Shown piece by piece: positions 51,342-51,949 of a stretch of 64,000 nt of DNA. The translations under genes were made by a program, and so were the position numbers. Source of the DNA: Escherichia coli (GTDB lineage Bacteria; Pseudomonadota; Gammaproteobacteria; Enterobacterales; Enterobacteriaceae); the NCBI RefSeq assembly GCF_001677475.2, contig NZ_CP015229.1; one strand, 5' to 3'. Numbering within the stretch: position 1 is the first letter of the stretch; each line of letters opens with the position of its first letter. The notes beneath the pieces are model-generated. The model was not told the origin of the DNA, did no database searches, and saw nothing but the letters and a program-made list of their open reading frames with translations.

Positions 51342-51794
51342 TTCCTTATTAGCTTGCTGTCTGCGTCACACTACGACCAAACGTTATCAGATTATTTAAT
51401 ACATTGTTTTTAATACAATTCTGAAACAATCTGAACACCTGATTGGGTTTGAGTCCATTGCTGGCTACCCACTCAAGGTTGCTCGTAGCTGACTTACTTA
51501 AATTACCCAAACAATAGACAGTGTAAACCATTTGTGAGGTTGAGCGTGTTATATGGCTGAAATGATCATTTAAGGTAAATATGATAGTTCTGAAATGGCG
51601 GGATAAATCCTCCTGTAGAGGTTAAGAGCATCTGCAAGAAGCCAGTTTCACATTTATAACGCGTGATAAATGAACGCGGTTATTGTCTAATCATTACAGA
51701 ATTTTTCACATGCAATAAGAGATCCTGCGATTAAGATGATTGCTAAAATTACATTGTATTTTTGAAAATGAGCGAAATTTGATAGTCCCAGCTT

Positions 51795-51823
51795 TGACTT
51801 TTGATAATATTATATATGCTACA
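51795..51823 (+). promoter_or_regulatory. Candidate sigma-70 promoter for the orphan 600-aa ORF
   Basis: TTGACT at 51795-51800 followed after about 16 nt by a TATATA/TATGCT -10-like element, in a very AT-rich leader. Confidence 0.25.
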
Positions 51824-51949
51824 GTTGTGGGTAAAGAATTTAAGCTAATGAGTTTGAGCGAAGAATAAATCAAACTGTATCAGTGTTTCGTTAATTAATA
51901 TGAGTATAAATGCGTTGTGCTTTTATAATAATAAAGCACGAGGAGTTCA

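Follow-up and report, generated by a model that had tools for sequence, protein, structure and literature searches.

The 608-bp AT-rich stretch between ybjP and a 600-codon pentapeptide-repeat gene of Escherichia coli is, in our judgement, probably non-coding control DNA that serves two divergent genes and came in with an acquired islet. This leader appears to hold neither a protein gene nor a recognisable RNA gene, and it would carry promoters for both of its neighbours. All coordinates are positions in the window, the 64,000-nt stretch of contig NZ_CP015229.1 that we analysed, in which the leader occupies 51342-51949. A previous reading of the same letters, made without database searches (the sequence-only reading), had presented the leader as a platform for silencing by H-NS that might contain a small RNA (sRNA) or an anti-silencing site.

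The leader is part of a foreign segment

With 34.5% G+C against 50.7% for the whole window (A+T 65.5% versus 49.3%), the leader is indeed the AT-rich gap of about 600 bp that the sequence-only reading had described. Equally AT-rich 600-bp windows make up 3% of all, and every one of them lies inside the same island. TpA steps are doubled in the leader (94 versus 46 per kb). The runs of A and T that had also been remarked upon are not enriched, as A/T tracts of at least four bases occur at the rate of the window (11.5 versus 11.2 per kb). To the left the leader is bordered by ybjP on the minus strand, and to the right by the 600-codon open reading frame (ORF) that begins at GTG 51950. Both edges are soft. 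RefSeq places the ybjP start at an ATG at 51335 instead of 51341. At the other edge, GTG 51950 is replaced by GAG or GTA in some alleles and RefSeq often uses ATG 51983; the downstream gene may therefore start at the latter codon, which leaves the right edge uncertain by 33 nt.

We checked whether the leader might be native K-12 sequence and found it absent from that strain. In K-12 MG1655, ybjP and ybjQ are 125 bp apart. When the K-12 region was compared with the window by BLAST, homology ended at 51353 and returned at 53902, and 2548 bp of the window occupy the place of 46 bp in K-12. Comparison with CFT073, which is without the island and has the short spacer, showed near-complete identity up to about 51287, followed by homologous but diverged sequence at 51288-51353 and by unalignable sequence beyond. 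This diverged portion takes in the ribosome-binding site and start codon of ybjP as well as its codons 1-16, and its identity is 73-78% whether E. coli, other Escherichia, Citrobacter or Salmonella serves for comparison. Besides the leader, the foreign segment comprises the 5' end of ybjP on the left and, on the right, the pentapeptide-repeat gene followed by a tail of 150 bp.

A spacer of 125-127 bp is found near-identical in K-12, CFT073, three non-coli Escherichia lineages, Citrobacter koseri and Salmonella. The short spacer is therefore ancestral and strongly constrained, and the long form represents an insertion or replacement within E. coli that brought in the downstream gene. This agrees with the earlier proposal that the gene is an acquired orphan, its only full-length match being its own cluster. 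The leader and the ancestral spacer share their position, and both are non-coding and supply the promoter, 5' untranslated region (5' UTR) and ribosome-binding site of ybjP. Otherwise they differ: their sequences are unrelated past the ribosome-binding site, the leader is five times longer, and its right-hand partner is a foreign pentapeptide-repeat gene, not ybjQ. Moreover, the spacer is conserved across genera, whereas the leader is limited to one fifth of E. coli.

Among 5426 complete E. coli genomes, 1128 carry the leader, each of them once, on the chromosome and between ybjP and ybjQ, and no extra or weaker matches were found in these genomes at blastn sensitivity. Carriers include O157:H7, O145:H28, O169:H41 and ST648, as well as, judged by protein matches, Shigella sonnei. 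In O157:H7 Sakai the leader occupies NC_002695.2 1033066-1033688. The leader was not found in phages or true plasmids, all matches in their collections being mislabelled chromosomes apart from one due to chance.

Most simply, these comparisons would mean that a more distant relative with a ybjP of its own supplied the segment, which entered by recombination with the left crossover inside ybjP. No integrase, transposase, tRNA target or flanking direct repeats were found at the segment, which holds a single ORF, and a search for flanking, terminal or internal repeats yielded none of note. The segment does not have the make-up of a classical genomic island or mobile element. Two apparent homologies at its ends were dropped after shuffle tests (p = 0.14-0.57): one between the K-12-specific 46 bp and the island ends, the other concerning ATGATTTCCT near 53865, a seeming duplicate of the ybjP ribosome-binding region.

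Two further comparisons concern the mosaic structure of the neighbourhood. The leader of strain 7/2 is 100% identical to that of the window, its flanking core genes differ at a synonymous divergence (dS) of about 0.076, and its copy of the gene is truncated; on this comparison the locus reads as a recombination mosaic. Separately from the island, K-12 ybjP codons ~17-90 (L004 2673-2920, corresponding to 51040-51287 of the window) are only about 80% identical to the window and to CFT073. The latter two agree over this interval, which marks a divergent patch of the K-12 lineage.

The leader is conserved in modules

We compared 35 distinct alleles of 51300-52010, taken from six complete genomes and from 51 metagenome contigs found by an invariant 24-mer. 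Every one of these contigs has the ybjP-leader-gene context. Three metagenome contigs (L013, L016 and L024) were considered as insertion-sequence events and rejected, since they break inside the gene and their remainders are unlike the reference alleles, that of L024 being unmatched in E. coli; we treated them as probable chimeric assemblies.

The variable sites divide the leader into a conserved left block, a hypervariable spacer at which evolutionary history switches, a conserved promoter block and a variable 5' UTR, the latter about as variable as the first 61 nt of the gene (Table 1). Allele classes are separated by a 9-bp indel in 51816-51949. In the left half most alleles share 98.4-98.7% identity, which falls to 91.5% with the most divergent one, that of strain R32_14_1F. 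The corresponding values are 93% and 76.5% for the right half, and 94% and 82% for the gene. Set against the synonymous divergence of the flanking core genes (0.04-0.14), the left half evolves at 0.2-0.6 times the neutral rate, as is typical of constrained intergenic DNA, and the right half at or above it.

This modularity bears on the idea that the leader is mere island junk, the remains of a decayed gene or mobile element. Such an origin would suit a sequence that is AT-rich, poor in ORFs and tolerant of IS1, and whose right half changes about as fast as synonymous sites. Yet two blocks stand out from the sequence around them by their clear conservation, and no parent could be recognised: tblastn of YbjQ, AmiD, YbjP and the pentapeptide-repeat protein against the leader detected no remnants, and there are no phage or plasmid matches, terminal repeats or protein homologues. 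We regard decay as extremely unlikely, and a constrained control region as the better description.

The leader shows no coding or RNA-gene signal

Stop codons interrupt every frame of the leader (18, 20 and 15 on the plus strand; 14, 8 and 16 on the minus strand), just as the sequence-only reading had stated, and the longest plus-strand ATG ORF, at 51581, has the 14 codons then reported. The accompanying picture of an ORF-poor region holds for that strand; a 60-codon ATG ORF on the minus strand (51349-51531) had been overlooked, although it too appears non-coding. That one of these two frames is a small protein gene deserved consideration. Of the 35 alleles, 29 have an intact 60-codon ORF, which ends 8 nt before the ybjP ribosome-binding site and is called by some annotators; the 14-codon ORF, preceded by AAGG 5 nt upstream, is intact in 34. 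Their variation is not that of genes, however. Variable sites in the longer ORF fall evenly on the three codon positions (8, 9 and 10), and premature stops truncate it in six alleles, while six of the seven variable sites in the shorter ORF hit codon positions 1 and 2. Nor did the variable sites in 51401-51660 show any 3-base periodicity. When the 60-codon ORF was extended to its longest stop-free frame (90 aa), database matches came only from the same E. coli locus, and no homologue is known to us beyond it. We rejected both ORFs as genes and find a hidden small protein barely credible.

A regulatory RNA was considered in the same way. The conserved left block (51400-51660) might encode an sRNA or, within a long leader transcript of ybjP or the pentapeptide-repeat gene, an RNA element acting in cis, as it is held at 0.2-0.6 times the synonymous rate with no coding signal and contains a consensus-like plus-strand promoter, CTGAAA-17-TATGAT (51557-51585). 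Against this, Rfam 15 gave no match inside the leader even at E <= 1, no intrinsic terminator was found on either strand, and folding did not differ significantly from that of shuffled sequences (z = -0.69 for 51400-51700 plus, -1.36 for 51342-51700 minus and -0.49 for 51815-51985 plus). There is no further copy of the block in any genome, and its alleles vary too little to test for covariation. The search for conserved structure that the sequence-only reading had recommended yielded no folding signal and only two weak hairpins in the 5' UTR. Base pairs changed on both sides numbered two, one in the hairpin at 51851-51876 and one in a 4-bp stem, each probably a single event. The suggestion that the leader holds an sRNA thus found no support, and we consider an RNA gene or element very unlikely compared with a region of promoters.

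Candidate promoter and predicted 5' UTR of the pentapeptide-repeat gene

The best candidate for a core promoter of the pentapeptide-repeat gene is TTGATA-18-GATAAT at 51779-51808. It matches the consensus at 10 of 12 positions and is the sole such match in the 64 kb, where 0.01 would be expected by chance. Both hexamers are invariant in all 34 alleles that cover the site, while the flanks vary at 43-44% of sites. In its hexamers, its spacing (16-18 bp being usual for this type) and its conservation, the candidate has the properties of a sigma-70-type promoter. The sequence-only reading had instead proposed a -35 element, TTGACT, at 51795-51800. This hexamer exists, at 51794-51799, within the spacer of our candidate, but a role as -35 is not borne out: the sequence 17 nt downstream is TGCTAC, which offers no -10, and TTGACT has become TTAACT in allele R32. 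TTGATA-18-GATAAT therefore appears to be the better promoter candidate.

Transcription from the predicted start near 51815 would yield a 5' UTR of about 135 nt with a Shine-Dalgarno sequence, GAGGAG, at 51940-51945, ahead of GTG 51950. RNAalifold, run on 13 alleles, returned two hairpins. In the first (51851-51876), one pair is changed on both sides, from GC to AU, in 5 of the 13 alleles, which is weak evidence for selection on pairing. The second (51915-51941), which runs into the Shine-Dalgarno sequence, is kept in all 13, mostly by one-sided U-A/U-G swaps, and these too are weak evidence. Both hairpins are ordinary for an mRNA leader.

A foreign 5' end and a lost promoter for ybjP

At the other end of the leader the import has altered ybjP itself. 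The signal-peptide start MRYRSLSL is confined to the island haplotype of E. coli; YbjP begins with MRYSKL(T/S)(M/L) in other Escherichia, Citrobacter and Salmonella, with further variants in other genera. In K-12, ybjP transcription starts at -56 from the ATG, from a sigma-S-dependent promoter, as tabulated in PMC2760140 from Lacour and Landini 2004. This start and its -10 fall in the 46 bp replaced by the island, at the break of homology. Because the mapped K-12 promoter has been replaced, ybjP of carriers must use a promoter inside the leader. The sequence-only reading, which had placed the ybjP promoter in this region and assigned the region a dual function, was in substance right, with the difference that the K-12 promoter has been overwritten by the island.

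A candidate replacement, read by eye, is TTGTAT-16-AATAAT on the minus strand. Its -10 is invariant and its -35 differs by one base in one of the 35 alleles. The predicted start, at about 51385-51390, would leave ybjP with a 5' UTR of about 50 nt, compared with 56 nt in K-12. We infer that this element may drive ybjP. Beyond the loss of the old promoter, we tentatively raise the possibility, on balance a doubtful one, that the import exchanged the conserved promoter and 5' end of ybjP so as to leave about one fifth of E. coli with an altered YbjP signal-peptide start and with foreign, probably H-NS-sensitive control in place of sigma-S.

Points against this interpretation

Several observations weigh against the leader being a divergent control region of an islet imported from a relative. 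Our scan found three promoter-like sites, a number no higher than in shuffled sequence (3.5 +/- 1.9), and the promoter assignments rest on consensus and conservation. The candidate ybjP promoter lies below the threshold of the scan, and its -35 matches the consensus at three of six positions. About 260 bp (51400-51660) are conserved, which is more than a simple promoter needs; the third consensus match, CTGAAA-17-TATGAT, lies inside this block on the plus strand. With respect to H-NS, the Lang motif TCGATAAATT, allowing up to two mismatches, does not occur in the leader, where about 0.8 matches would be expected at the rate of the window. Finally, the donor search did not find a donor lineage. 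A scan of species-representative genomes returned one locus only, on contig JAIJJM010000403.1; this 2972-bp contig, binned in a metagenome-assembled genome labelled 'Collinsella sp.', is 96-99.6% identical to the E. coli locus and is almost certainly an E. coli contaminant. On the evidence as a whole we continue to think a divergent control region probable.

Table 1. Coordinates of the leader, its modules and neighbouring features in the window
Feature	Position	Strand	Remarks
Foreign long-haplotype segment	51288-53901		~2.6 kb, G+C 0.33; replaces the ancestral 125-bp ybjP-ybjQ spacer
ybjP	50820-51341	-	DUF3828 lipoprotein; first ~16 codons foreign-type (MRYRSLSL...)
Leader	51342-51949		608 bp; probable divergent non-coding regulatory DNA
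Conserved left leader block	51342-51660		Variable-site density 0.08-0.20
Conserved non-coding block	51354-51660		Most likely ybjP upstream regulatory DNA brought by the segment
Candidate replacement ybjP promoter	51392-51419	-	TTGTAT-16-AATAAT; putative, read by eye; -10 at 51392-51397
IS1 insertion site	51518-51528		Strain THO-008
Hypervariable spacer	51661-51730		Variable-site density 0.43; switch point of evolutionary history
Conserved promoter block	51731-51815		Variable-site density 0.14
Candidate core promoter, pentapeptide-repeat gene	51779-51808	+	TTGATA-18-GATAAT; -10 at 51803-51808; predicted start ~51815
TTGACT hexamer	51794-51799	+	Within the spacer of the candidate core promoter
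Variable 5' UTR	51816-51949	+	Variable-site density 0.44; extends to 51982 if ATG 51983 is used
Small hairpin in 5' UTR	51851-51876	+	AGUUUGA/UCAAACU
Hairpin at Shine-Dalgarno	51915-51941	+	RNAalifold; last two bases overlap the first two of the Shine-Dalgarno
First 61 nt of gene	from 51950		Variable-site density 0.41
Pentapeptide-repeat protein gene	51950-53752	+	600 aa; the orphan of the sequence-only reading
Candidate new ybjQ promoter	53853-53880	+	TTGACA-16-TAAACT; right end of the island

Probable H-NS binding and IS1 insertions at the islet

H-NS coats AT-rich foreign DNA in enterobacteria. The islet has the traits of such DNA: A+T makes up 65.5% of the leader and 67% of the island, and the segment is patchily distributed (1128 of 5426 genomes) and absent from the outgroups examined. 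Since the islet is AT-rich and foreign and its leader rich in TpA steps, binding of H-NS across it is likely. A separate matter is whether, in line with the sequence-only reading, the leader is a dedicated silencing platform; it would then be a nucleation site, possibly with an anti-silencer site, and would keep the gene off until a regulator displaces H-NS. The composition of the leader, its place in a clearly foreign segment and the clustering of IS1 insertions in it would all fit, and the conserved block 51731-51815 continues for about 50 bp on the upstream side of the core promoter, where an activator or anti-silencer could bind. However, the leader has no match to the Lang motif and is not enriched in A-tracts, and the three matches to TCGATAAATT with at most two mismatches in the whole island correspond to the average rate of the window. 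The gene body has 32% G+C, the left half of the leader 38%; because the gene is thus the more AT-rich of the two, nothing marks the leader out as a silencing platform, and silencing would more plausibly span the whole 2.6 kb. A platform or anti-silencing site confined to the leader is therefore speculative, a possibility that we hold to be rather improbable, and a control region within a generally H-NS-prone islet remains our preferred view.

The literature, searched by the locus tags ECs0948-0951 and Z1096-Z1101, held no H-NS occupancy or hns-mutant data at the locus. Mentions of these tags were limited to a mutation table (z1097, PMC7486766) and a transcriptome mention of ECs_0950 (PMC11301168), none of them on the leader. 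An H-NS/StpA chromatin immunoprecipitation study in the uropathogenic strain CFT073 (PMC9765446) is uninformative here because that strain is without the island.

Insertion sequences have struck the leader more than once. IS1 is inserted in it in strain THO-008, and in strain CUWW06 an IS1-mediated deletion with its endpoint at 51668 has removed 51669-53734, that is, the right half of the leader together with the gene. IS1 prefers AT-rich DNA regardless. Its presence in the leader is also consistent with AT-rich, H-NS-bound DNA acting as a hotspot of transposition; the capture of transposons by H-NS-bound DNA is reported in PMC11335895.

The locus of enterocyte effacement (LEE) and Salmonella pathogenicity island (SPI) promoters are examples of AT-rich acquired regulatory regions silenced by H-NS. 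The leader resembles these in that it is foreign, lies about 16 points of G+C below the genome, forms a long ORF-poor upstream region and is a target of insertion sequences. Unlike them, its link to H-NS is predicted, it has no Lang motif and no known counter-silencer is linked to it; the islet, moreover, consists of one gene in 2.6 kb without integrase, tRNA or flanking repeats.

The pentapeptide-repeat gene and the right end of the islet

Matches to the Pfam Pentapeptide family cover residues 366-469 of the encoded protein. Relatives over the full length are confined to E. coli and Shigella, and among 1.84 billion representative proteins its own cluster was the only full-length match. The other matches were generic pentapeptide-repeat similarities and short proteins with 63-99% identity over parts of the query, the latter being, in all likelihood, pieces of this gene. 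A search among solved structures found no homologue. Between alleles the gene shows a dS of 0.18-0.6, compared with 0.04-0.14 for the flanks, from which it follows that its alleles coalesce far deeper than the surrounding backbone. A ratio of nonsynonymous to synonymous divergence of 0.18-0.29 points to purifying selection where the gene is intact. Several lineages carry truncated or split, pseudogenised copies. In O157:H7 the gene is split into ECs_0949 and ECs_0950 near codon 413, and a run of asparagine codons (NNK, codon ~411) is where an insertion arose in a laboratory-evolved isolate of enterohaemorrhagic E. coli (z1097, PMC7486766).

The nearest family to which the protein can be likened, from sequence alone, is that of the EspX type III effector-like proteins (EspX1, ECs0025, and others). 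Both have an N-terminal region, a block of pentapeptide repeats and a C-terminal region; both are encoded in small AT-rich single-gene islets in the backbone, and one database source names a homologue 'putative type III effector'. The similarity itself is marginal, as EspX1 of O157 Sakai matches with E = 0.001 and 22% of 109 residues identical, solely in the repeats and some 15 residues after them. The O157 copy (ECs0949/ECs0950) is missing from the tabulated Sakai EspX loci (PMC5931665).

The right end of the island carries a candidate new promoter for ybjQ with a perfect -35, in a 50-bp block that is unchanged in seven aligned island alleles bar one single-nucleotide polymorphism. No terminator was found after the pentapeptide-repeat gene. 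In view of the perfect -35 and the lack of a terminator, ybjQ-amiD may run from island sequence or from read-through.

Elsewhere in the window, 19700-21350 is the sole other stretch below 40% G+C and corresponds to the 5' half of an 808-aa ORF (19947-22373). Judged by its sequence, this ORF may be the gene for a yliE/pdeI-type EAL-domain phosphodiesterase that lies downstream of the gsi operon.

A proposed history of the locus and its meaning

We propose the following course of events. In the forebear of about 21% of E. coli, an AT-rich segment of about 2.6 kb would have come to lie between ybjP and ybjQ; probably this ancestor had recombined with DNA of a more distant enterobacterium. The import would have overwritten the first ~16 codons of ybjP, its ribosome-binding site and its conserved sigma-S promoter. 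Since then leftward transcription of ybjP may have begun at a new promoter within the conserved left-hand portion of the leader, for which TTGTAT-16-AATAAT (51419-51392) is the candidate, and rightward transcription of the pentapeptide-repeat gene at the putative TTGATA-18-GATAAT promoter (51779-51808), passing through a variable 5' UTR of about 135 nt predicted to end in a small hairpin and the GAGGAG Shine-Dalgarno. H-NS probably coats the 67% A+T islet and would damp both promoters.

Taken alone, the leader would supply an acquired gene with promoter and 5' UTR in an ordinary way, and so changes little. What is gained is a set of precise and testable promoter and boundary coordinates for an unstudied pentapeptide-repeat gene that is limited to E. 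coli and Shigella and occurs in O157:H7, Shigella sonnei and many extra-intestinal lineages. The wider interest lies with ybjP. If its control has indeed been exchanged, the conserved 51400-51660 would represent a new regulatory input, and expression of ybjP could differ between carriers and island-free strains. Recent studies have identified YbjP as a lipoprotein that partners the TolC efflux duct (bioRxiv 10.1101/2025.03.19.644130, 10.1101/2025.10.29.685381), and work on it in K-12 may not transfer directly to strains of the island haplotype. A tiny islet, it appears, can overwrite a promoter that is conserved across genera.

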